From sequence record NC_073315.1: a DNA stretch of 43,947 nucleotides, one strand, 5' to 3'. Below the pieces are notes generated by a model that did no database searches, was not told the origin of the DNA, and was given only the letters and a program-made list of their open reading frames with translations. The position numbers and the translations under genes are program-made. This document shows, one piece after another, positions 2,782 through 39,481 of this stretch (its first letter is position 1; each line of letters begins with the position of its first letter). This DNA comes from Escherichia phage vB_EcoS_fFiEco03.

Positions 2782-3858
2782 ATGCTATTAACTTTAGCGC
2801 CACAGGGTTTATCTATGAGCTTACTTACATCTCTAATCAGCCACCAGATATGGCTGCAACGCACTGCATCCGGTGAGGTGAAAGACCTCGCGCCGTTCAT
2901 TAAGGAGATGCGGGACGAAATAAAACGGCAGGTGCTGTTATTCGGTGACGACGGGCGGAGCACTGCGCGACTGAATAAACTGTTACTCGACCTTGAAGAA
3001 GCACTGACGTGGCTTACAGGTGACTGGCAAACAAAGCTGACAGAAGACCTTAAGGAACTGGCCGCATATGAGGCTGAGTGGAACGTAAAAACACTGACCG
3101 CCAACGTTGACGCGGAATTTGTTACGCCTACCGCCGAACAGGTGTGGGCTGCTGCCGAGTTTCAGCCGCTGTCGTTAAGCGACAAGCCCGTCGATTTCAC
3201 TAAGCTGATGGCAGGCTGGGGTGAAACGGAGGCCGCGCGCCTCGTAACCGGCGTTAAGATGGGGTTTGTTCAGGGCCAAACCACACGGCAGATTGTTAAA
3301 AATGTCGTAGGCGCTGGTGGGCTGGCGGACATCTCTGAACGCAACGCGGCTACGGTAATCCGCACCGCGCTGTCTCACGTATCCAACGAAGCCCGCAACG
3401 AGACATACCGCCAGAACGACGACATCATCGAGAAATACGAGTGGGTGTCAACGCTGGACAGCCGCACCAGCACGATTTGCAGGGCCAGAGACGGAATGAC
3501 GTGGGAAATTGGTAAAGGGCCGATGCCACCCGCGCATCCTAATTGCCGAAGCACCACCGCGCCTGTAATCAGTTCGGAGTTCGACTTCCTCGATAAAGGC
3601 GCAAAACGCGCGGCTAAGGGTGCGGACGGCGGTACTCAGGTAAGTGCAGACACCACCTATTACGAGTTCCTTAAACAACAACCGGCGTGGTTTCAGGATG
3701 AAGCATTAGGGCCAGTTCGCGGTAAGATTTTCCGTAACAGCGGTATATCGCCGGAAGAGTTTCGCGTAATATCTGTAGATGGTTTCGGGAATCCGCTCAC
3801 GCTTAAGCAGATGGCGGAACTCGATAAACGTGTTGCTGATTATCTGAAAGGGGATTAA
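2782..3858 (+). CDS. Head morphogenesis protein (SPP1 gp7 / Mu F-like minor head protein)
   Basis: 358-aa ORF in the terL-portal-morphogenesis order. No clear SD at 2782, and an alternative ATG lies at 2815, so the start is uncertain. Confidence 0.7.
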   Translation: MLLTLAPQGLSMSLLTSLISHQIWLQRTASGEVKDLAPFIKEMRDEIKRQVLLFGDDGRSTARLNKLLLDLEEALTWLTGDWQTKLTEDLKELAAYEAEWNVKTLTANVDAEFVTPTAEQVWAAAEFQPLSLSDKPVDFTKLMAGWGETEAARLVTGVKMGFVQGQTTRQIVKNVVGAGGLADISERNAATVIRTALSHVSNEARNETYRQNDDIIEKYEWVSTLDSRTSTICRARDGMTWEIGKGPMPPAHPNCRSTTAPVISSEFDFLDKGAKRAAKGADGGTQVSADTTYYEFLKQQPAWFQDEALGPVRGKIFRNSGISPEEFRVISVDGFGNPLTLKQMAELDKRVADYLKGD

Positions 3859-4319
3859 TGATGGGCTTTTTCAAAGTAACTGATGTACCCGCGCGCCGCG
3901 TAGTCCAGTACGCCCGTGTGTCTGGCTCCGGCGAGAATGTGGTGTTTATTGAAGATGAAAGTGTACTAGGTACACCGGTAGACGATATGCCGTTCGCAGA
4001 TAAAACCGGTATTGCGCTACCGGCGGCGGGCATGCTTTACGAGATTCCGTATCTGGCAGACGCTGGTGACGTGTATTTCTCTGTGCAACCGAAAGACACC
4101 GAGCTGGTCGACGGTAGCACCACCATCACCGTCGAAGTTAAGGCAGGTAAAGCGCCGTATGTACTGACCTGGTACAAAGACGGGAAGGAAGTGGTGAACG
4201 CCCCGGAAGAGGCTCTGTCTCTGACTGTTAATGCGGCTGGTGAATACTTCGTTAAAGTTACTGATGCTGATGGGGTAGAGGCGGTAAGCAAGGCGGCGAA
4301 GGTTACTAAGCCAGAATGA
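3858..4319 (+). CDS. Hypothetical virion protein with C-terminal Ig-like domain
   Basis: 153 aa; ATG overlaps the upstream stop (TAATGATG); C-terminal segment resembles the Ig-like fold motif also seen in ORF 7948..8298 (PY..W.KD). Confidence 0.45.
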   Translation: MMGFFKVTDVPARRVVQYARVSGSGENVVFIEDESVLGTPVDDMPFADKTGIALPAAGMLYEIPYLADAGDVYFSVQPKDTELVDGSTTITVEVKAGKAPYVLTWYKDGKEVVNAPEEALSLTVNAAGEYFVKVTDADGVEAVSKAAKVTKPE

Positions 4320-4323
4320 TAAA

Positions 4324-4353
4324 AGGCCCCGTTAAGGGGCCTTAGTTTTATTT
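4324..4353. terminator. Bidirectional intrinsic terminator at convergent gene ends
   Basis: AGGCCCC-GTTAA-GGGGCCT stem-loop followed by TAGTTTTATTT; lies between the + gene ending 4319 and the - gene ending 4348. Confidence 0.6.
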
Positions 4354-4869
4354 AAATCGCGCTGGCATTAGCACCATAAATGCAGTGTTTGAAAACGATA
4401 TTTTGCATCCTCTGGTTTGGTCCTGGAAATCGAAACGAGCAATTTCATTTTTGTATGCCTTAGAAATCTTGTGCGCGTCTGCCAAGTAGGGCATGGTAAA
4501 TCCTATGCTATCAACTGCCCCCGGCGTGATGTGCGCCACACGTCGCCAGTCAGGAAATTTTCCGTCTACAACATCCACCGGAAGTGTACATATAAGCGCA
4601 CGACTATCGTCATAGAAAGATACACTGCCGTTGTCGTGGTCTACTTCCGCGTAGTTAAATTTAGAAGGCTCTCTCCCTTTTATGTCTATGAGAGCCCCAT
4701 TCTCAACGTTTGTCTTAACATTGTCGCAGAACAATCTATGGCCGTCCGTAGACACTATCAATCCTTCCGGGTCTATGTAAAAAGCGTTCAGATAGTAGCG
4801 TACATCATTTTTAGCCCTGCAGATTTTCGCCCCTACATACGCGGGAAAAGTAATTACTGTGGCAACCAT
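4348..4869 (-). CDS. Truncated DnaN-like (beta sliding clamp-like) protein, 173 aa
   Basis: Contains DVRYYLN...TDGHRL, DGKFPDWRRV and C-terminal MVLMPARFK, matching E. coli DnaN landmarks (DVRYYLNGMLF...TDGHRL, DGRFPDYRRV, VVMPMRL) recalled from memory; AGGAG RBS and own promoter. Confidence 0.6.
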   Translation of the reverse strand: MVATVITFPAYVGAKICRAKNDVRYYLNAFYIDPEGLIVSTDGHRLFCDNVKTNVENGALIDIKGREPSKFNYAEVDHDNGSVSFYDDSRALICTLPVDVVDGKFPDWRRVAHITPGAVDSIGFTMPYLADAHKISKAYKNEIARFDFQDQTRGCKISFSNTAFMVLMPARFK

Positions 4870-10908: not shown

Positions 10909-12075
10909 ATGGCTACAACTCCTTTTAAGGGCGCGAATACCGCGCAATTCTATGTGGCGGAAACTACCCCGGGCGTGACACCGACTTCCCCGGTATGGTC
11001 GCCGTTGCGCAATACTGGCGGTGTTCCTGCGGTAACCCGCGACGCGCTGACCTCCAACGAACTCGACGGCAGCAGAGAAACCACATCCATCCGCACCGGT
11101 AACAAACAGGTTAGCGGGGAGTACGCCATCGAACTTAGCTCACGTAGCCAGGATGATTTCCTTGCGGGTGCTATGACTTCTACGTGGCAGGATGGGGTAG
11201 AGATTACGGGTGCTGAAATTACGGTCGCTCCAGCAGGTAAAACATTCACCCGCGCTGCCGGTAGCTTCATTACTGACGGTGTAGAAGTTGGCGACCTGAT
11301 TGCGTTCACCGACTTAACCGGCGACAACGCAAAACCGTTTATCGTGACTGAGGTTTCTGCTCTTGTAGTTACGGGTGCGGGTATCCAGCACACGCTGACA
11401 GCAGAGACTGTAACCACCGACGCTAAAACAGGCGATAAACTGGAAACCGGTAACGCATGTAAGACGTTCTCCATCCTGACATGGTTCAAAGGACAGTGCG
11501 GGAACCCTGACGCGTACATGCTGACCAAAGGCGTGGAAATCTCCGGTTTCACCATTGAACAGGCCGTAAACGCGATGGTGACAGGCAGCTTCCCGTTCAT
11601 CGGTCTGAGTCAGGAAATTCTTTCTGCACCGCCAGCAGGTTCTGATTTCTCTCAGGTGACGTTTACCGATGAGCCGTTCTCATCCGTAGATGTGTCTGTG
11701 TTCGACGGTTCTACGCCGTTGCGTTGCGATACTCTGACCATCACCAACGACAACGGTGCGTCCGCACAGTTCGAACTAGGCAACAGTAGCGTCGCGTTCG
11801 TGGAACGTGGTCGCGCGGCTAACACATTCTCCATCTCCGGCAAGCTGTACGACATGGCGATGATTCAGAAGTTTATCAACGAACAGCAGGTAGAGATTAA
11901 CTCTATTCTGGCGGGGGTAAACGGGGCTATGTCTTTCAGCCTGAAACGTGCCGAGTTGACCGCAGTTACGCCAGAAATATCTGGCCCAGAATCAATCACC
12001 CAGAGCATAGAGGGACAGTCCACCGGCAATCAGTACCAGTCATCTATCGTAATTCAGCGTATTAGTTACACATAA
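10909..12075 (+). CDS. Major tail protein
   Basis: ATG at 10909 with AAGAGG RBS; about 388 aa; followed by a strong terminator and, further on, the chaperone and tape measure genes. Confidence 0.65.
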   Translation: MATTPFKGANTAQFYVAETTPGVTPTSPVWSPLRNTGGVPAVTRDALTSNELDGSRETTSIRTGNKQVSGEYAIELSSRSQDDFLAGAMTSTWQDGVEITGAEITVAPAGKTFTRAAGSFITDGVEVGDLIAFTDLTGDNAKPFIVTEVSALVVTGAGIQHTLTAETVTTDAKTGDKLETGNACKTFSILTWFKGQCGNPDAYMLTKGVEISGFTIEQAVNAMVTGSFPFIGLSQEILSAPPAGSDFSQVTFTDEPFSSVDVSVFDGSTPLRCDTLTITNDNGASAQFELGNSSVAFVERGRAANTFSISGKLYDMAMIQKFINEQQVEINSILAGVNGAMSFSLKRAELTAVTPEISGPESITQSIEGQSTGNQYQSSIVIQRISYT

Positions 12076-12120
12076 CTTGTGGTATAAGAAGAGTAAAGGA
12101 TAGCTTTAGCGGGCGAAAAA

Positions 12121-12150
12121 GAGAGGGGTCGTGCCCTCTCTTTCCTTTAT
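12121..12150 (+). terminator. Intrinsic terminator after the major tail gene
   Basis: GAGAGGG-GTCGTG-CCCTCTC stem-loop followed by TTTCCTTTAT. Confidence 0.65.
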
Positions 12151-12182
12151 ACGGTAAATACACGAGCCTGACGAGGTGAATA

Positions 12183-12815
12183 ATGTTCTTGTATGAAGAA
12201 TTTGAAAAGATACCAGCATCAAAACGGGCGGTATCATGCCGTAAAACAATCTGCGGAGTCGGTGTCAACGATGCAGATTTCACCACCAGTATTTTCAACG
12301 GCAAAAAGTCTGTTAACCACCCGGTGTACGATATTTGGTGTGCGATGATATTCAGGTGCTACCATGGGTCCGTTAAGCATCCAACATACTCAGGAGTGGT
12401 AGTGTGTGAAGACTGGCTGTATTTCTCCAACTACTTTAAATGGTACAAAGATAACTACGTAGAGGGTTGGCATGTTGACAAAGATTTGCTTACGGATTCT
12501 AAAGAATACTCACCGGATACCTGTATATTTGTCCCAAGAGTTTTAAACAACTTTCTAACCGACAGCGCAGCGGCTAGAGGTGACCTACCGATAGGCCTTA
12601 CTTATAGGAAAACAAACGGCAAGATTCGATGCAGGGTTAATAATCCGCTAACCGGGGTGCGCGAAAACTTAGGCGATTTTACCGATTTGGATGAAGCCAT
12701 CAAGGCCAGAACGCTGCGGAAGTTAGAGATAGCCGGAGAACTTAAGCCACTTATGGATTCCATAGACGGGAGAATCTATCCGAGGGCCGTTTCTGTAATT
12801 AAGGCACAACGATAA
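12183..12815 (+). CDS. Putative homing endonuclease (HNH-like nuclease domain plus C-terminal AP2-like DNA-binding domain)
   Basis: N-terminal W..M..RC...HP.Y.G..VC.DW..F..F..W...EGWHVDKDLL...YSPDTC pattern; C-terminal GKIRCRVNNPLTGVRENLGDFTDLDEAIKA (AP2-like); free-standing between terminators. Confidence 0.55.
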   Translation: MFLYEEFEKIPASKRAVSCRKTICGVGVNDADFTTSIFNGKKSVNHPVYDIWCAMIFRCYHGSVKHPTYSGVVVCEDWLYFSNYFKWYKDNYVEGWHVDKDLLTDSKEYSPDTCIFVPRVLNNFLTDSAAARGDLPIGLTYRKTNGKIRCRVNNPLTGVRENLGDFTDLDEAIKARTLRKLEIAGELKPLMDSIDGRIYPRAVSVIKAQR

Positions 12816-12819
12816 AACT

Positions 12820-12845
12820 AAGGCCCCTTTCGGGGCCTTTTTCTT
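12820..12845. terminator. Bidirectional intrinsic terminator (28-nt sequence repeated at 24735..24762)
   Basis: AAGGCCCC-TTTC-GGGGCCTT with U-rich flanks on both strands; convergent junction. Confidence 0.7.
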
Positions 12846-13074
12846 ACTCATCAATATTGCTTCGGTACTCCCGTAACTTCTCCAGGCTTTCGATTGCCTC
12901 AGCTAAGTCTGTCCAGGTGTCCTTGTGACCACGTAAACCCATACACAATAGCTTCTTCAATGCGTGCTGTAACGCCGGGTCGCGTATGTCGAAGGCGCGT
13001 AGCACGTCGTAAACGTCTACAGTCATGGTGCTGCCGTGGGTGTTTGTCATTGTGCGGTTGTATTTATTTGTCAC
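12844..13074 (-). CDS. Hypothetical small protein (start ambiguous: 13074, 13050 or 13026)
   Basis: Last gene of the - strand island; no clear SD for any candidate start. Confidence 0.4.
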   Translation of the reverse strand: MTNKYNRTMTNTHGSTMTVDVYDVLRAFDIRDPALQHALKKLLCMGLRGHKDTWTDLAEAIESLEKLREYRSNIDE

Positions 13075-13264
13075 GGTTAACTCTCTTAAATCGGGCTATG
13101 CCTGACTCGTTAATGCTGCCTATTTCAAAGAAGCTGCGATATTTAGGCGAATACATTCTTACGTCGCCGTTCTCTAGGGTGACCCCTTCATATACAGCGC
13201 CTACTTCGAATCCATTTTTCTCCGCGTACGGACTCACATCGGTGCATTCATACATATCTTTCAT
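13064..13264 (-). CDS. Hypothetical protein, 66 aa
   Basis: ATG overlaps the stop of the upstream phosphoesterase gene (ATGA coupling). Confidence 0.5.
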   Translation of the reverse strand: MKDMYECTDVSPYAEKNGFEVGAVYEGVTLENGDVRMYSPKYRSFFEIGSINESGIARFKRVNRDK

Positions 13265-14391
13265 CCCAGCATCTCCGGTGAAATAGTTAAACGTGCGACC
13301 TCGCCATATTCGGCGCTATAAGTAATTACATTTGCACTACGGCCCGACATCCATCCGCCGCGCGAGGCGTAGGCGTCTTTAGCCGCTAAGGTGCGGTGTT
13401 GCTCAACAATCATGTTACGGCTTTCTACAATCTTCTGGTGGTGGAGGTGGCCTACGTGGGCGTAGCTGTAAACGCTTTCGCCAAATGCTTTGCGGAACTT
13501 GGCAATCATAACCGGTTCGATAGCGTCTAATCGCGCCTTATGCCCGTGGTGAAAGAACAGCGTAGTTTTGCCGTGTTTGACCATCTTGTAAACATCCGGC
13601 GACGTATCGACGAACACACGCGGCTCATTGTCGTACAGCGTACTAAACATCTCAGCTAACCAAATCATTCCGCTTTCGTCGTGGTTCCCTTGCACGATAA
13701 GCAAGCGAACAGATTTATGCTTAACCAGCGCCATGTCAACAACACGGCGTACCATACGAATCATGTAGCGGACCAGTTTCTGATAACGAGTGTCCGCATC
13801 AAGAACATGACCACTCGCTGGCGTAACCGCATCCAGACTATCGAAGTGCGCGAAGTCACCCAGCAGGTTAATAACCCCAGTTCCTGCATCTGGTGCTTTC
13901 TGAAACGCCGCATCGAACCATCGGGAGAACAGGTCTTCCGCAATCTTCATATCCCAGTCGTCGCCGCTCTCGTCAGCCCAGGCCAGCATACCAAGATGGA
14001 AATCAGATACCGTGTACAGATTGAGTAGTTTATCGTCGCGTTTGGCTCGAGTCGCTTTAACCGGCGCAACTGGCGTAATCTCCGACTTCATTCCTTCGAT
14101 CACGGCTTTCATTAACTCGACCTGACGTTCGGCGTCGGTGTCTGTCTTAACCCATTGCAACTTAGTGTTGCCGAACTCGTCCACCAGTGACGACGTTCCT
14201 TTAATTTTGTAGCCGTCCGGGACAAGATGGCTAACGTCACGACCGTGACCTACGCCTTTCTTCGCCAGCTTCGCTTTACGGATACGAATAACTCGGTCTG
14301 AGATGCCGTATTTACGGGATATGTCGATAATCTTTGTTCCGGCGTTCAATTCTTCCTGTAACTGTTCGTCGGTTATTTTCTTCCGGGCCAT
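13261..14391 (-). CDS. Calcineurin-like metallophosphoesterase with N-terminal HTH (SbcD/Mre11-like motifs)
   Basis: Motifs SDFHLG, GDFAHFD, GNHDES, FHHGH and GHLHH in canonical order; N-terminal HTH-like segment (ISRKYGISDRVIRIRKAKL); GAGGAAG RBS. Confidence 0.7.
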   Translation of the reverse strand: MARKKITDEQLQEELNAGTKIIDISRKYGISDRVIRIRKAKLAKKGVGHGRDVSHLVPDGYKIKGTSSLVDEFGNTKLQWVKTDTDAERQVELMKAVIEGMKSEITPVAPVKATRAKRDDKLLNLYTVSDFHLGMLAWADESGDDWDMKIAEDLFSRWFDAAFQKAPDAGTGVINLLGDFAHFDSLDAVTPASGHVLDADTRYQKLVRYMIRMVRRVVDMALVKHKSVRLLIVQGNHDESGMIWLAEMFSTLYDNEPRVFVDTSPDVYKMVKHGKTTLFFHHGHKARLDAIEPVMIAKFRKAFGESVYSYAHVGHLHHQKIVESRNMIVEQHRTLAAKDAYASRGGWMSGRSANVITYSAEYGEVARLTISPEMLG

Positions 14392-14429
14392 GCTTACTTC
14401 CTCGTGTTTAGGATTTGTCCTATACTAGC

Positions 14430-14621
14430 TCACTTCTCTTTGACATTCGAGTTGCAAGCCCAGATTAAAATAAATACCCACGGCAGCAGAACCCAGCCGA
14501 GAAACAGATTAGCCATGAATATCGCCAGTTTCGCTTTATGTCCGCGCATATGGGCCACTAAAAACGGGATAAAATAAACTAAAACGATAATGATTAAGAA
14601 GAACATAGTAATACCTGTCAT
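14430..14621 (-). CDS. Superinfection-immunity-like small membrane protein (2 TM)
   Basis: 63 aa from ATG 14621 with AGGAG RBS; motif YFIPFLVAHMRGHKAKLAIFMANLFLGWVLLPWVFILIWA resembles the Imm-type superinfection immunity family (recalled). Confidence 0.5.
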   Translation of the reverse strand: MTGITMFFLIIIVLVYFIPFLVAHMRGHKAKLAIFMANLFLGWVLLPWVFILIWACNSNVKEK

Positions 14622-14662
14622 GGTGTAGCTCCTGTTTGAGTTAACATTGTTGGTGTAAGTGA

Positions 14663-14691
14663 ATAGTATCCTATTATGTTGGGGTGCGCAA
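14663..14691 (-). promoter_or_regulatory. Sigma70-like promoter, class I (TTGCGC-N17-TACTAT), drives the reverse island
   Basis: On the - strand: TTGCGC, spacer ACCCCAACATAATAGGA, TACTAT. Near-identical to the + strand promoter at 37107..37135. Confidence 0.55.
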
Positions 14692-14799
14692 GTAATGTGA
14701 TAGAATAATTTTGCGCCTAGTGTCGCACACGAAAAGCGGGTGGTTCCCGTCTGGCGCATTTACCATTAACCTGTAACCTCTTAACCAAAGGATTAAAGA

Positions 14800-26999: not shown

Positions 27000-27187
27000 T
27001 TCAGCACCAGAACTAACTCTTTACGCCCGAACGCCGTAACGTTACCGGTTACGTCTTCGATAACCAGTTTACCGTTCGACTCGACGAACACCGTATCAAC
27101 GGCAACAGGGCGACGGGTCTTAACGTTGAAAATCATGTCGCCCGGTACGATGTCACGTGCTGGTTTGCGGTCATATTCGTGTTTCAT
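26996..27187 (-). CDS. Hypothetical protein, 63 aa
   Basis: AAGGA RBS; first gene downstream of the 27221 promoter. Confidence 0.5.
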   Translation of the reverse strand: MKHEYDRKPARDIVPGDMIFNVKTRRPVAVDTVFVESNGKLVIEDVTGNVTAFGRKELVLVLK

Positions 27188-27217
27188 TTCTCAATTCCTT
27201 ATATTGTTGGTGTAGGG

Positions 27218-27502
27218 CTAACTATAATAGTTCGCTATTAGGTCGTCAACCTGTTTGAACGACCCGACGACAAAAACATTCGCGCCGCGTTTGCGCATAC
27301 GCTCATGCTCACGTAACTGGTGTGGGTCTGGCTTCGTGTTTTCGTCTTTCTTAACCTCGACGAACCAGACGATACCGTTGGGGAGAATTACCAGCAGGTC
27401 GGGGGCGCCGGAACGCCCCTCGTAGGAAAGTTTACGAACGAGGCCGCCGATAGCCTCGAATCGCTCTTTTGCGTATTTCTGGATGCGCCCCTCTTTAGTC
27501 AT
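27218..27502 (-). CDS. VRR-NUC domain nuclease (putative)
   Basis: 94 aa from ATG 27502 (ATGA-coupled); pattern G.PDLLVILPNGIVWFVEVKK...Q consistent with a VRR-NUC PD-(D/E)xK core (recalled). Confidence 0.55.
   Translation of the reverse strand: MTKEGRIQKYAKERFEAIGGLVRKLSYEGRSGAPDLLVILPNGIVWFVEVKKDENTKPDPHQLREHERMRKRGANVFVVGSFKQVDDLIANYYS
27221..27249 (-). promoter_or_regulatory. Sigma70-like promoter, class II (TTGACG-N17-TATAGT), embedded in the 3' end of the VRR-NUC gene
   Basis: On the - strand: TTGACG, spacer ACCTAATAGCGAACTAT, TATAGT. Same design as the promoters at 30954 and 33569. Confidence 0.55.
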
Positions 27503-27651
27503 GAGCGCAGAACCCAAGTTATAAACGCCCCGCCTAAAATGGCAACACCAACAAACTTAAAGAACAGGCCATAACAGAACATCGCGGCTATTCCTGCGCC
27601 GAGTAGCAGTGCGAGCATGGTTACTATCGTCCAAAATACAAACATTGTCAT
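27499..27651 (-). CDS. Micro-ORF: 50-aa two-TM membrane peptide
   Basis: Hand-translated MTMFVFWTIVTMLALLLGAGIAAMFCYGLFFKFVGVAILGGAFITWVLRS; ATGA overlaps at both ends. Confidence 0.4.
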   Translation of the reverse strand: MTMFVFWTIVTMLALLLGAGIAAMFCYGLFFKFVGVAILGGAFITWVLRS

Positions 27652-27737
27652 AATACGCACCCCTCACGTTTCGTATGCTCAATCCCGCAGCGCGGACAGA
27701 TTCGGCAGTCTTCTTCGTAGAACCAGTAAATTTTCAT
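27648..27737 (-). CDS. Micro-ORF: 29-aa Cys-rich (zinc-ribbon-like) peptide
   Basis: MKIYWFYEEDCRICPRCGIEHTKREGCVL; ATGA overlaps at both ends. Confidence 0.3.
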   Translation of the reverse strand: MKIYWFYEEDCRICPRCGIEHTKREGCVL

Positions 27738-27865
27738 TCCAGCACCCACAGATAAATTGCGATGAACATACCCAGTACGGCGGTCATCATGTCGTATTGA
27801 CCCTCGTGGTAGTAGACACCGGCTGCGAATCCCGCCAGTACTGCAATAATCAGTTTACTTGGCAT
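27734..27865 (-). CDS. Micro-ORF: 43-aa membrane peptide
   Basis: MPSKLIIAVLAGFAAGVYYHEGQYDMMTAVLGMFIAIYLWVLE; strong CAGGAG RBS; start overlaps the 3' end of the DNA polymerase gene. Confidence 0.4.
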   Translation of the reverse strand: MPSKLIIAVLAGFAAGVYYHEGQYDMMTAVLGMFIAIYLWVLE

Positions 27866-30056
27866 AACGTTTTAACTCCTGACCTTCCGCTACAAGAGGG
27901 AACCCCTCCGCCCACTCTGGCAACGCACACATTAATTTTTCCAGTTCAGCCACCGTGTAATCCGGCGTATCTGGAGTTTCACATACCAGTTCATCGTGTA
28001 CCGAAAGCACGATGGGATACCCGCCACCCTCAACATTAATCATCGCATATGCGAGTAAATCACGGCACAGCGCCTGAACAATGTTTTCGCAGGCTTTGCC
28101 GCCGTGTGTGTACAGGGTAGTCCATTGGCGGGTTAACTGGTTTTCACCTTGGTACTTGATTCGCACATTCGTGTTTACCCGTCCGTCTTCGTCTGTTTCT
28201 TTTGTCACGCTAACGCCGATTCCTGGATACGAGAGGATACGGCCCGACGGCAACTCCATACACAACCACCAACCGGGAACCTTCCTACCGGATGAATCGG
28301 TTTCTACTGTTCTCCAGATTCGGATAGCGCGCTCGCCATTCTTGCGCAGATGCGCCCCCGCCCAAAATTCACGACCCGGATTTCTTACAGCGGCTAAAAT
28401 ACCGTCTTTGAGGTCGCGCCAGAACGCTACTGTTTCCGGGTGTGACTCGCGCCACATACGCTTGATTGCGTCGCAGGTGCGCCACACTTTCTTGTCCAGA
28501 ATATACGATGGTCGGTCATCCTTCTCACCTGGATGCGGGGGGCGCTTGGCTTCCTGGATGCGCGCCCATTCATATCCTCTCGCGGTGGCCGACCAGATGT
28601 GGTCCGGGAATGTACCGTCCATTGTTTTAGCCATCTCAATAAGGTCGAGGCCTAAGTTTTTGGCGAACGTAACGAATGCTCCGACGCCTCCCTCGTAGCC
28701 GAGGCCCAGTTCGCATGCTTTGCCTATCTGTCTGATTTCCTTAAAGTTTTTCTTAATATCGTCGGGGTCCATGCCAAACATCTTACCTGCAGTTACGCAA
28801 TAAATATCCAACCCGGCGCGGAAAGTATCAAGCGCGGTTTCTTCGCCTGCCAACCACGCAAGCCCACGACCCTCAACGTTAGAGTAATCGGCAACAACAA
28901 ACTTATGCCCCACTTCCGGTATGATGCAGCTACGTACCGTCGATGCCGTTAGCTTGGCTACATCAAAACGGCGGTGTGCCCGGCCTTTAAGTAACGCTGA
29001 AATGCCTTTATCCAGTTCATCATCGTGATAGTACCCGCGCGCCAGGTTCTGTGGTTGGAAGCCTTTACCCGCCCACCGCAAAGTGCGTTTTGCCCCACCG
29101 TACTGTAAACAACCCCGGCGGCGGTCGTCCGATGAGCGGCCCAACAGCAGTGGGTTATATTTCGTTGACGCGGTGGACGCGGCCCCGAGGCGCATTTCGA
29201 TAATTGTGCGTGCGTCGTCCGGTAAATCATCGTCCGCCAGCAGGTCGTTAAGCGTCGACTTCTGTGCGTTGTGTATGCGGTGTGCAGGGGCGAGTTCACG
29301 AAGAATCGGCAGAAAGTCCTTACCAGTAAGCGAGCCGCCGTATTTGCGTTGGGCTTCCTCCTGTAACTGCGCTTTGTGTTTCTCCACGGCTTCAATAGCG
29401 GCTTCCGCCAGTGCAACGTCAACCTTAAACCCGCGGTCGTTGATTAACTGGTCCAGTTCCAGTACACGGTCCTCGAACTCGGAGTTACCCCAACGCGGCA
29501 GCTTATGGAAGACTTCACGCATCGCAGTGATGTCGCTCACGGCGTACTTGATGAACAGCGCCCACTCATCAGGGTGTGTTTCGGCGGTGTAGCGTCTGAT
29601 TTTGTAGTTCTTCGGCGTCGGCTTAGAGAAACGCTGAATCAGCGCCTTGCCGCGTTTATCTTTTGCATTGTCAGCAGACACGCCAAGCACTTCACACAGC
29701 GCATCAAGTGAACCCGGCAGCGCGTGACGAAACGCCCAAATCATCGTATCAATGGTGTTGCTTACCGGAATATCAAAGTCCCAACAGTGCTTCATGATGA
29801 GCCTGTCGAACATTGATCCGTTGTGCCATACCATCTTAATGCGACTGTTTGGCTTAACCAGGCGGCGTAACGCACGATGCAAATCACCCGGCATGTCGCT
29901 GCCGTCGGTGCAATCCCATACCCGCACAGGCTCGTCGTCAAAAGCATATGTGCAGATAAGCACTTCGGTAGTCGGGTGTTCGGCGTAAGCGTAGGAGCCG
30001 ACTTTCTTTAAATCTGCTTCGGAGAATGTTTCAAAGTCCAGGTATAAGTAGCTCAT
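27855..30056 (-). CDS. DNA polymerase, family A (with 3'-5' exonuclease domain)
   Basis: Exo motifs YLYLDFETFS and HNGSMFD, polymerase motif SVHDELV; start placed at ATG 30056 (AAGGA RBS, ATGA-coupled to the upstream micro-ORF) rather than the ORF-track 30110. Confidence 0.85.
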   Translation of the reverse strand: MSYLYLDFETFSEADLKKVGSYAYAEHPTTEVLICTYAFDDEPVRVWDCTDGSDMPGDLHRALRRLVKPNSRIKMVWHNGSMFDRLIMKHCWDFDIPVSNTIDTMIWAFRHALPGSLDALCEVLGVSADNAKDKRGKALIQRFSKPTPKNYKIRRYTAETHPDEWALFIKYAVSDITAMREVFHKLPRWGNSEFEDRVLELDQLINDRGFKVDVALAEAAIEAVEKHKAQLQEEAQRKYGGSLTGKDFLPILRELAPAHRIHNAQKSTLNDLLADDDLPDDARTIIEMRLGAASTASTKYNPLLLGRSSDDRRRGCLQYGGAKRTLRWAGKGFQPQNLARGYYHDDELDKGISALLKGRAHRRFDVAKLTASTVRSCIIPEVGHKFVVADYSNVEGRGLAWLAGEETALDTFRAGLDIYCVTAGKMFGMDPDDIKKNFKEIRQIGKACELGLGYEGGVGAFVTFAKNLGLDLIEMAKTMDGTFPDHIWSATARGYEWARIQEAKRPPHPGEKDDRPSYILDKKVWRTCDAIKRMWRESHPETVAFWRDLKDGILAAVRNPGREFWAGAHLRKNGERAIRIWRTVETDSSGRKVPGWWLCMELPSGRILSYPGIGVSVTKETDEDGRVNTNVRIKYQGENQLTRQWTTLYTHGGKACENIVQALCRDLLAYAMINVEGGGYPIVLSVHDELVCETPDTPDYTVAELEKLMCALPEWAEGFPLVAEGQELKRYAK

Positions 30057-30267: not shown

Positions 30268-30900
30268 TTAACGGCGACGACGTTCGCGGCGAGGTGCTTC
30301 ATCTTTTTCATCGTCATCGTCTTCCAGGTCATTGACGCTTGCGGCGACTTTAGAACCACCAAACGCTTTACCTTCGCCAACATATTTAATTGCCAGCAGG
30401 TTAACGCCTAGAACTTTATATTTCTGGCTGAACCAGATTTCAACGCTTACATTAGCTACGCAGCCACTGTAAACCTGTTCACCTTCAATCTGTTCGCCGT
30501 CTACGTTGAAGTCCTGCTCCACCTGAGTCTCACCTTTTTTAGAGGTTACAATCAGCGGCTGCTTCTGCGCCTTCGCTTTGAAGTAGAAGCCTTCTGGGAA
30601 GTCTTCAAACGGGTTATCACGCTCAGCAATGTCTTTAATCGCGCATTTATCCATGTGCTTACCTTCGCCGTAGTTGGACTTCATCCACTTCTCGGCAGCG
30701 GCTGCGCCTAACGCTTCTTCAACTACAGCGTAGACAGTGTCGTAGAGCGCGTCGATTTGCGCGTGGTCAGACGGCAGGATTATAGTCGCGCTGTACTGGC
30801 CTTTAGTGATGGAGCCATCATCGTTTTCACGGTCTTTTTCGCGTTCGAATACGTTAACCCATGCAGTGTTTACTTTACGCAGATTCAGTTTAATACCCAT
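30268..30900 (-). CDS. Putative ssDNA-binding protein (DUF2815-like)
   Basis: 210 aa, acidic Asp/Glu-rich C-terminal tail; position between the Cas4-like nuclease and the polymerase, as in modules where DUF2815 pairs with DUF2800 (recalled). Confidence 0.5.
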   Translation of the reverse strand: MGIKLNLRKVNTAWVNVFEREKDRENDDGSITKGQYSATIILPSDHAQIDALYDTVYAVVEEALGAAAAEKWMKSNYGEGKHMDKCAIKDIAERDNPFEDFPEGFYFKAKAQKQPLIVTSKKGETQVEQDFNVDGEQIEGEQVYSGCVANVSVEIWFSQKYKVLGVNLLAIKYVGEGKAFGGSKVAASVNDLEDDDDEKDEAPRRERRRR

Positions 30901-38662: not shown

Positions 38663-38834
38663 GCATTTGATTAAAGTTACCCCAGTATGGTCGGCGTGGG
38701 TTATTGCCTCTGATGGGAAGCACGTACCAAAATTCGTGTTCACTGATGAGAAAGTTGCGCGTGAGTGGCTTCGCGCCGGCAAGAAAGGTGAACGCGGCAT
38801 CATGAAGGTTGGGCTTGTAGGAGACGTATTATGA
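38646..38834 (+). CDS. Hypothetical protein, 62 aa (N-terminus MSNKNE)
   Basis: ORF with GAGGAG RBS; flanked by the 27-nt direct repeats. Confidence 0.5.
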   Translation: MSNKNEHLIKVTPVWSAWVIASDGKHVPKFVFTDEKVAREWLRAGKKGERGIMKVGLVGDVL

Positions 38835-38847
38835 GTAACAAAAACGA
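38821..38847 (+). repeat. 27-nt direct repeat, copy 2
   Basis: See 38636..38662. Confidence 0.7.
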
Positions 38848-39481
38848 AGTATTCGAGTACCTGATTGACCAGTTACGGCGGCAGCTACCGGTCGTAGATG
38901 TTATGGGTGAGATTGAACGGTGGAGTATCGACCGTAGTATCGCGGGTCGCGGTAACTATACCGACGAGGAAAACGCCATAATCGATGCTTACATCGGCCT
39001 GGAGCACAACCCGTACAAGCAACAGTGCGAAGGCCTGGCCCATGAAGTGCTGTCACTTAAGAATCAGTTACGTGATGCGTCGGCGCTGGTGGCTGAGTTA
39101 CAGAAAGAACTTGATATCGCCAATAGCACCGTCGTTCGTTTGCGTAAAGAGATAGCTAAGTCTACCGGTGACATTGGAGAATACATCGATGCCATGGAGC
39201 AATCCGGTTGCTGCAAAGAAGATACTCAGTACAACGCCTGGAGGCCTCATTACGGTGCACGACAACCTGTGCCGGATGGGACTATGGTATTTATCCGGTA
39301 TCGCAACGGGGAGGAGCCGAAACACAGTGTAGCAGCAGAAAAGCGGTCGTGGATTTGGGATGGAACATACGCAGACATAGTGGAATACAAGATTGACACA
39401 CAGGAATGCGAGCACAATTGGTTATATAGTAAACACAAAAGTGGCTTCGTTTGCTTTAATTGCGGAGCGCGTAAGCCATGA
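38831..39481 (+). CDS. Hypothetical protein, 216 aa (N-terminus MSNKNE, Cys-rich C-terminus)
   Basis: ATGA-coupled; C-terminal C...C..C pattern (ECEHNW...FVCFNCG). Confidence 0.5.
   Translation: MSNKNEVFEYLIDQLRRQLPVVDVMGEIERWSIDRSIAGRGNYTDEENAIIDAYIGLEHNPYKQQCEGLAHEVLSLKNQLRDASALVAELQKELDIANSTVVRLRKEIAKSTGDIGEYIDAMEQSGCCKEDTQYNAWRPHYGARQPVPDGTMVFIRYRNGEEPKHSVAAEKRSWIWDGTYADIVEYKIDTQECEHNWLYSKHKSGFVCFNCGARKP

Follow-up and report, generated by a model that had tools for sequence, protein, structure and literature searches.

The genome of Escherichia phage vB_EcoS_fFiEco03 (NC_073315.1), whose 43,947 nucleotides were analysed as one stretch and are called the window here, has a 740-bp insert between the stop codon of its tail tube gene and the terminator that follows. 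I conclude that the gene carried by this insert, a member of the IPA-HNH family, is probably a free-standing homing endonuclease gene and the payload of a mobile cassette. A sequence-only reading had placed a free-standing AP2-domain homing endonuclease gene at 12183–12815, between a tail gene and a group of reverse-strand genes (the reverse island). The position was confirmed by the call of the open reading frame (ORF) and by annotation, and the proposal is supported by the results below, with DNA cleavage itself as a predicted activity. The features of the junction are as follows.

10909–12075, + strand: tail tube gene, left flank (GenBank annotation of phage fPoEco01; phrog_290)
12076–12815, + strand: mobile insert of 740 bp (structured leader and endonuclease-type ORF)
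12183–12815, + strand: endonuclease-type ORF, 210 amino acids, ATG at 12183, TAA at 12813–12815
12820–12839, both strands: bidirectional intrinsic terminator AAGGCCCC-TTTC-GGGGCCTT (hairpin search, minimum-free-energy fold, relatives)

The insert lies exactly between the TAA stop codon of the tube gene and the AACTAAGGCCCC of the terminator. Since TAA occurs at both ends of the insert, its boundary is ambiguous by 3–4 bp. Relatives lacking the endonuclease gene (fBC-Eco01, Snoke, Sciku, SHAK7693, EC3-1, and Bas74) can be aligned with the window as far as 12075, and their alignment picks up again at 12812 or 12813. The empty junction is ...TACGCATAA|AACTAAGGCCCC... in endonuclease-less relatives such as Bas74, fBC-Eco01, and SHAK7693, and Snoke and Sciku have the junction variant GGAAAAGG. 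The insert was found in 10 records, corresponding to 7 distinct phages, all of which have the full 740 bp, while a homologous 3′ end of the tube gene is present in 484 records (about 115 of them at an identity of at least 80%). Thus, the presence/absence polymorphism that the sequence-only reading had suggested looking for is clear-cut. That reading would have been contradicted by a gene that is universal and essential for tail assembly; the gene is absent from most close relatives and, since these relatives have a homologous tube gene, it is not needed for tail assembly. No match to the insert was found in complete E. coli genomes, and thus it is not prophage-borne in these.

On the + strand, the terminator acts for the insert, and on the − strand, it acts for the reverse island. 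In endonuclease-less relatives, the stop codon of the tube gene is followed directly by AACTAAGGCCCC...GGGGCCTT. Thus, the terminator is resident and was not imported. The sequence-only reading had taken intrinsic terminators on both sides of the gene as the usual mark of a homing endonuclease insertion. Hairpins do flank the gene, but the downstream one is resident and the upstream one is helix P3 of the structured leader described below, so that a pair of terminators is not a signature brought by the element. The terminator loop at 12820–12839 is inverted among the relatives (GGCCCC-GAAA-GGGGCC or GGCCCC-TTTC-GGGGCC in loci L002 to L014), and the 5 bp before the stem are either AACTA or GGAAA. 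Every insert carrier has the combination of AACTA and TTTC.

The insert exists as two alleles that are about 10% apart. In all pairwise comparisons among the window, fEg-Eco19, and fFiEco02, there are 0 differences in the 740 bp of the insert, with flanks diverged by 5.9–9.5%. ORH_001 and Ec1-ASingh differ at 1 of the 740 positions, with flanks diverged by 9–14%. The tract without any difference spans 11842–12855 (1014 bp) against fEg-Eco19 and 12016–12885 (870 bp) against fFiEco02. Exact identity extends 40–234 bp on each side of the insert, and in other carriers the last 60–234 bp of the tube gene (starting at 12016 or 11842) were co-converted with it. About 50–70 differences would be expected over the length of the tract from the flank divergence, and none was found. 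Genome-wide, no exact run against fEg-Eco19 exceeds the endonuclease tract (1014 bp, followed by 377 bp), which ranks second in length in the other two pairwise comparisons. Between the two alleles, the ratio of nonsynonymous to synonymous substitution rates (dN/dS) is 0.05–0.07, and every copy of the gene is intact.

More distant phages have diverged orthologues (62% and 59% amino acid identity) at this junction. Moreover, the family has a second insertion site in this phage group, between the genes for a head morphogenesis protein and an Ig-like tail protein. This site is occupied in K1ind3 and fFiEco02, whereas Salmonella phage pink has a truncated and apparently degraded copy there and the window has none (3858–3859); the second-site copies lie at 2438–3061 in L019, 3983–4552 in L017, and 2501–2989 in L018. 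Taken together, the identity tracts, the distribution, the orthologues, and the second site are what an element that is actively homing would be expected to leave behind. Of the features by which a homing endonuclease gene is functionally defined, presence or absence at one precise site, co-conversion, and a spread faster than the divergence of the flanks were found here, and site-specific cleavage of the empty allele is predicted. Between its portal and terminase genes, a podovirus-like contig (L022) has a homologue with 43% identity (3911–4627), preceded by the same leader. The adjacent large terminase gene of that contig (4657–6241) was called as two ORFs (Terminase_6C and Terminase_6N), a possible sign of an intron, an intein, or a frameshift.

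The AlphaFold model of the 210-residue protein is confident, with a predicted local distance difference test (pLDDT) score of 88 (built on 23 homologues), and the protein can be divided as follows.

12240–12566, + strand: N-terminal domain of HNH-derived appearance, residues about 20–128
12477–12548, + strand: putative active-site beta-beta-alpha segment (invariant columns, AlphaFold secondary structure, register via the DRID family)
12585–12743, + strand: AP2 domain, residues about 135–187
Residues 188–208: C-terminal helices

For the C-terminal part (about 135–187), Foldseek returned only AtERF1 and WRI1, both with a probability of 1.00. The profile of 127 family representatives also matches WRI1 (E 7e-7). 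This part thus has the three-stranded sheet packed on a helix that characterises AP2/ERF domains, together with the profile match, and the C-terminal domain is confirmed as an AP2 domain both by fold and by profile, as the sequence-only reading had stated. Among the 127 representatives, 22 match the Pfam AP2 model and 0 match any Pfam HNH model.

The IPA-HNH family was defined bioinformatically by Barth, Dunham, and Seed in 2023 (PMC10448857). Judged from its sequence, the gene is a member of this already described homing endonuclease family and does not represent a new one. The family is large, with 31,476 cluster representatives at E≤1e-3. By tblastn, it was matched in 1417 phage records, with Vibrio phages (ICP1 among them) and Rheinheimera Barbaviruses predominating. 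In the same survey, IPA-HNH-type copies were often found several per genome and beside nrdA, DNA polymerase, or ligase genes. In ICP1 genomes, the match has 32% identity over residues 33–198 (E 6e-12 to 7e-12) at two places per genome, and the matched ORF also has 210 amino acids.

Is the N-terminal domain a nuclease? Eight residues (W52, R58, Y69, D99, K100, D101, Y109, and N122) are invariant across the 127 representatives. In the AlphaFold model, D99-K100-D101 (nucleotides 12477–12485) ends a strand formed by residues 96–99, and N122 (12546–12548) is on a helix of residues 119–125 after a strand of residues 115–118. The N-domain matches a very large family with the pattern 'Y..W..M..RC ... 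IDRID..GNYEP.NCRWAT..Q..N' (the DRID family) with an HH-suite probability of 98.9% (E 2e-17). The DRID family in turn aligns with HNH_3 in the expected register (DR with DH, NCR with NLR, and Q..N with N..N; pairwise E 0.002). In the register obtained through DRID, K100 would be at the position of the catalytic histidine, and D99 and N122 at metal-ligand positions. Read in this way, the metal-ligand aspartate before the histidine position and the asparagine on the helix are present in 127 of 127 representatives. The only direct 'HNH' label for the protein is phrog_953 (PHROG annotation 'HNH endonuclease', E 1e-68). The GenBank submitters and the available text of PMC10448857 report HHpred/HHsearch hits to HNH, and no discussion of the replacement of the catalytic histidine was found in that text. 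Thus, the N-terminal domain looks HNH-derived without the defining histidine, and I infer a nuclease activity. The HNH-like pattern in a DKD variant noted by the sequence-only reading is accurate in that DKD is the invariant D99-K100-D101. However, it has no direct HNH profile match; a profile search finds AP2, and HNH is reached only via the DRID intermediate.

Several results weigh against an active homing endonuclease. Scans of the single protein against Pfam, NCBIfam, and PADLOC gave no matches, and neither did phmmer against the PDB sequences. When the N-domain profile was compared directly with canonical HNH_3 by hhalign, no similarity was detected (probability <1%), and the link from DRID to HNH_3 is itself weak (probability 15%). 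The fold match of the N-domain to PacI is marginal, and Foldseek returned no nuclease. The protein lacks the general-base histidine of HNH and other His-Me finger enzymes: its position is held by the invariant K100 and, in the sister DRID family, by an arginine, and the nearby H97 is not conserved. Published cleavage data were found for no member of the IPA-HNH family in the searchable literature. As for the identity tracts, a 932-bp run at 27030–27961 is exactly identical to fFiEco02. In the comparison with this phage, no other tract is longer than that of the endonuclease, and the run may stem from a further recent exchange. Mosaicism is general among Kagunaviruses, and therefore ordinary recombination contributes to such tracts.

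The gene might instead encode a DNA-binding regulator or an anti-host factor made of an inactivated HNH scaffold and an AP2 domain, whose nuclease activity either disappeared or never existed. The cassette would then be a moron, and ordinary homologous recombination at a junction prone to it would account for its spread. The family-wide replacement of the catalytic histidine by lysine or arginine and the lack of a nuclease profile match are consistent with this, and the strong purifying selection (dN/dS 0.05–0.07) is in keeping with a gene that is useful to the phage. Phage proteins with an AP2 domain can be pure repressors, as exemplified by the CasPRs (bioRxiv 10.64898/2026.02.23.707548). 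In addition, the junction also holds non-selfish cargo such as kinases, and the name given by the GenBank submitters is 'putative DNA binding protein'. However, the invariant D99, K100, D101, and N122 are located exactly on the beta-beta-alpha unit of the model, which argues for a conserved, not a decayed, active site. There are only 7 distinct carriers, yet the gene is identical in genomes that otherwise diverge by 7–12%. The tracts end 40–234 bp from the insert in three independent comparisons, which is hard to obtain without a break at the site, and the family is multi-copy per genome with essential genes as neighbours, which is typical of homing endonuclease genes. I therefore consider an inactive scaffold unlikely. 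The position directly after the tail tube gene, in the same orientation as the late structural genes, could also point to a morphogenetic role, that is, an accessory of tail assembly or DNA packaging. A model for this would be HK97 gp74, an HNH protein that works with the terminase. Here, however, the gene is not near the terminase gene, its homologues are found in unrelated genomic contexts, and it is missing in the great majority of close relatives that have the same tube and tail genes. Because of these presence/absence data, such a role is essentially refuted and appears extremely improbable.

If the gene does encode a homing endonuclease, the following route may be envisaged. In a mixed infection, the protein would bind DNA via its AP2 domain, and the HNH-derived domain (D99-K100-D101...N122) would cut or nick the empty junction of an endonuclease-less phage near TAA|AACTAAGGCCCC. 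Repair from the carrier genome would then copy the cassette along with adjoining flank, from a few tens up to a few hundred bp. The carriers themselves presumably escape cutting, as the two halves of their junction are kept apart by the insert.

The tube stop codon and the ATG of the endonuclease-type ORF are separated by 107 bp, and the Shine-Dalgarno sequence of the ORF is GAGGTG at 12173–12178. It was revealed that this spacer contains a structured leader related to the int-alpA RNA motif (Rfam RF02996; Weinberg et al. 2017), with the following elements on the + strand.

12091–12152: int-alpA-class three-helix leader (custom covariance model, minimum-free-energy fold)
12094–12100 with 12143–12149: helix P1
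12103–12106 with 12111–12114: helix P2, followed by the conserved GCGAAAA
12120–12127 with 12134–12141: helix P3, with the loop GUCGUG

The leader and the int-alpA RNA have in common the three-helix architecture and the conserved UAGC...GCGAAAAG core. In contrast, the int-alpA RNA lies between int and alpA in prophages, whereas the motif here is a 5′ leader of protein-coding genes of lytic phages, many of them HNH genes. With RF02996, whose gathering score is 35.8 bits, the leader of the window scores 18.8 bits, below the threshold, and its P3 is unusually long. The leaders of orthologous genes score 38.2 bits (L027) and 30.3 bits (L021), and the leaders of two further HNH genes score 39.8 bits (L024) and 36.2 bits (L025). 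A custom covariance model, built from 36 independent instances in viral contigs, gave 30.3 bits (E about 1e-9) for the window leader, and the minimum-free-energy fold has the same three helices. In an alignment of 46 hits (40 distinct rows), 88.4% of the helix cells are paired, compared with 64% in shuffled alignments and at most 46% with slid partners, and the covariation score is 0.656, a value reached by 0 of 500 shuffles, versus 0.22; this alignment was fitted to the model and is thus biased in favour of the structure. In the diverged orthologue of L021, GATAGCTTTAGCGGGCGAAAA is kept exactly, while both arms of the next hairpin have changed in a compensating way. The same 21-mer GATAGCTTTAGCGGGCGAAAA is also found in viral contigs upstream of two unrelated HNH genes, one of the NUMOD4/HNH_3 type and one of the zinc-finger HNH type. 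The hairpin at 12120–12141 was also considered as a simple terminator brought by the element, and this was rejected in favour of helix P3, because other instances of the motif have P3 stems of only 4–6 bp and no U-tract.

Since endonuclease-less relatives have no such leader at the tube junction, the copy there belongs to the insert. The motif does not accompany the whole IPA-HNH family: no leader was found before the second-site IPA-HNH gene of K1ind3 or before the canonical HNH_3 genes at the tube junction. BLAST searches of cultured phages with the Rfam int-alpA consensus or the doubled core motif gave only chance matches or the 10 carrier records. In viral contigs, 39 non-redundant genes directly downstream of the motif were classified. 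They include 7 HNH_3 genes, 4 genes of the IPA/DRID type, and 2–4 other HNH genes; the remainder comprises DUF1376/primosomal genes, Dam, and others. Position 12152, just 3′ of helix P1, is one of the few at which the window differs from its nearest record (see below); there, it agrees with fEg-Eco19 and fFiEco02.

What might the leader do? Two segments complementary to the UCGUG of the P3 loop, CACGA at 12161–12165 and ACGAG at 12171–12175, overlap the Shine-Dalgarno region (12161–12178, + strand). In general, the P3 loop tends to be complementary to one or two stretches shortly before the Shine-Dalgarno sequence. Among 48 motif instances, the longest run of complementarity between the loop and the downstream sequence is 6.5 nucleotides on average, compared with 4.6 in shuffled sequences. 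The run of the window itself is 5 nucleotides against a shuffle mean of 4.7, about the same as in shuffles, so that the case for loop pairing rests on the trend in the family and not on the window copy. It is possible that a pseudoknot or an alternative pairing between the P3 loop and the Shine-Dalgarno region limits translation, and the leader probably controls or times the expression of the endonuclease-type gene. My best guess is that the int-alpA-class motif is a cis-acting element for translation or transcript fate.

A second int-alpA-class motif was found in the window and is resident.

14708–14762, + strand: int-alpA-class motif (20.2 bits, E about 7e-6; the minimum-free-energy fold agrees)
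14641–14669: sigma-70-like promoter site, about 40 nucleotides upstream of the motif

This motif lies 38 nucleotides before the ATG of the tail assembly chaperone gene (14800), at the point beyond the reverse island from which the rightward late operon resumes. All Kagunavirus relatives examined have kept it, whether they carry the endonuclease gene or not, and 12 related loci have a hit in the corresponding position. The motif overlaps with the 5′ end of the minus-strand immunity ORF in its long version (14430–14759), which is annotated in relatives either at full length (327–330 bp) or as a 192-bp gene.

Relatives differ in what lies between their tube and phosphoesterase genes, and the suggestion that this junction is an insertion hotspot was thus borne out by the differing cargo.

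KMB36: canonical HNH_3 gene with an AP2-like tail, − strand
EC3-1: HNH_3+AP2 gene next to the phosphoesterase gene
SHAK7858 and others: dNMP kinase and polynucleotide kinase genes
fBC-Eco01, Snoke, Sciku, and SHAK7693: small ORFs of 52–58 amino acids
Bas74: no extra cargo

The gene content of the reverse island on the right also differs among relatives. In the window, it is composed as follows.

12844–14759, − strand: genes for a 76-amino-acid protein, a 66-amino-acid protein, a metallophosphoesterase / DNA repair exonuclease, and a superinfection immunity protein

Over the 5 kb that surround the ORF, the window has 99.9% identity with Escherichia phage vB_EcoS_fPoEco01 (MT711526; Kagunavirus, Guernseyvirinae). 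Over 6 kb, the window differs from the deposited fPoEco01 sequence at 4 positions (11263, 12152, 13523, and 13578). The GenBank submitters labelled the gene product 'putative DNA binding protein', and the record carries a note pointing to I-HmuI. Two GenBank records, L004 and L011 (OR594183 and OR594180), are filed under Autographiviridae/Kayfunavirus and named vB_EcoM; a taxonomy error in these records is suggested, because their sequence and gene order are Kagunavirus-like over the regions compared. An ORF at 30268–30900 (− strand) likewise has 210 amino acids. It encodes a Gp2.5-like single-strand-binding/annealing protein (phrog_112) that is unrelated to the endonuclease-type ORF. A second place in the phage record had been reported by tblastn; the sole other match within the window is a chance stretch of 23 residues in this ORF, which was rejected as a paralogue. 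The ORF at 38831–39481 was also considered as a relative and was found to be unrelated.

As a homing endonuclease gene, the gene is ordinary, and its family has been known since 2023. The noteworthy features are the histidine-to-lysine active site, the unusually clean evidence for recent homing, and the int-alpA-class leader. The locus is a tractable test case, since the hosts belong to a group of E. coli phages in which numerous genomes that have or lack the gene have been sequenced, the BASEL collection member Bas74 among them; homing is thus directly measurable, and the exact sequence of the empty site is available. It raises the question of how an HNH-type domain without the catalytic histidine would cut DNA, if at all. 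The orphan int-alpA motif, on the other hand, is now placed upstream of several unrelated endonuclease families and at the restart of the tail operon. I tentatively suggest, as a rather doubtful possibility, that the cassette is a selfish unit of two modules, a His-less nuclease (a catalytic variant) and a portable int-alpA-class leader that would gate translation through pairing of the P3 loop with the Shine-Dalgarno region. If this were true, tens of thousands of phage proteins would have a lysine (or, in the sister family, an arginine) at the position that is taken by the general-base histidine in every characterised His-Me finger enzyme. Moreover, the orphan int-alpA motif would be a phage cis-regulatory element co-opted by selfish genes and also used at the phage's own late-operon restart.

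The founding IPA-HNH members, ICP1 gp59, gp115–116, and gp209, resemble the protein studied here in their length of about 210 amino acids, in an N-domain too divergent for Pfam HNH_3, and in the C-terminal AP2 domain. IPA-HNH genes are likewise free-standing and sporadic, lie next to essential genes, and are enriched in the same phage groups (Barbaviruses and ICP1). The present gene differs from the founders in its host group (Kagunavirus), in its site at the junction of the tube gene and the terminator, and in its structured int-alpA-class leader. The neighbourhood statistics in PMC10448857 stress DNA polymerase, ribonucleotide reductase, and terminase genes, whereas the neighbour here is the tube gene. 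Canonical HNH_3+AP2 endonucleases (the class of Magnani et al. 2004, and EC3-1 gp32 and the KMB36 HNH gene at the same junction) share the C-terminal AP2 domain and the free-standing occurrence in phages. However, they have a DH...N...N motif and match Pfam HNH_3, while the N-domain of the window protein has D-K-D, no HNH_3 match, and an extra conserved helical region with the pattern W..M..RC. The family profile aligns with the two neighbouring canonical HNH_3-AP2 proteins in the AP2 part only (HH-suite E 1e-6). In mechanism only, I-HmuI and the Seg and Mob endonucleases of T4 offer a further comparison. They belong to a sequence family different from that of the window protein, but they too are intergenic selfish genes with an expected cut of the endonuclease-less allele near the insertion and co-conversion of the flanks. 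I-HmuI makes a nick, and the expression of the free-standing homing endonucleases of T4 is held back by RNA structure.

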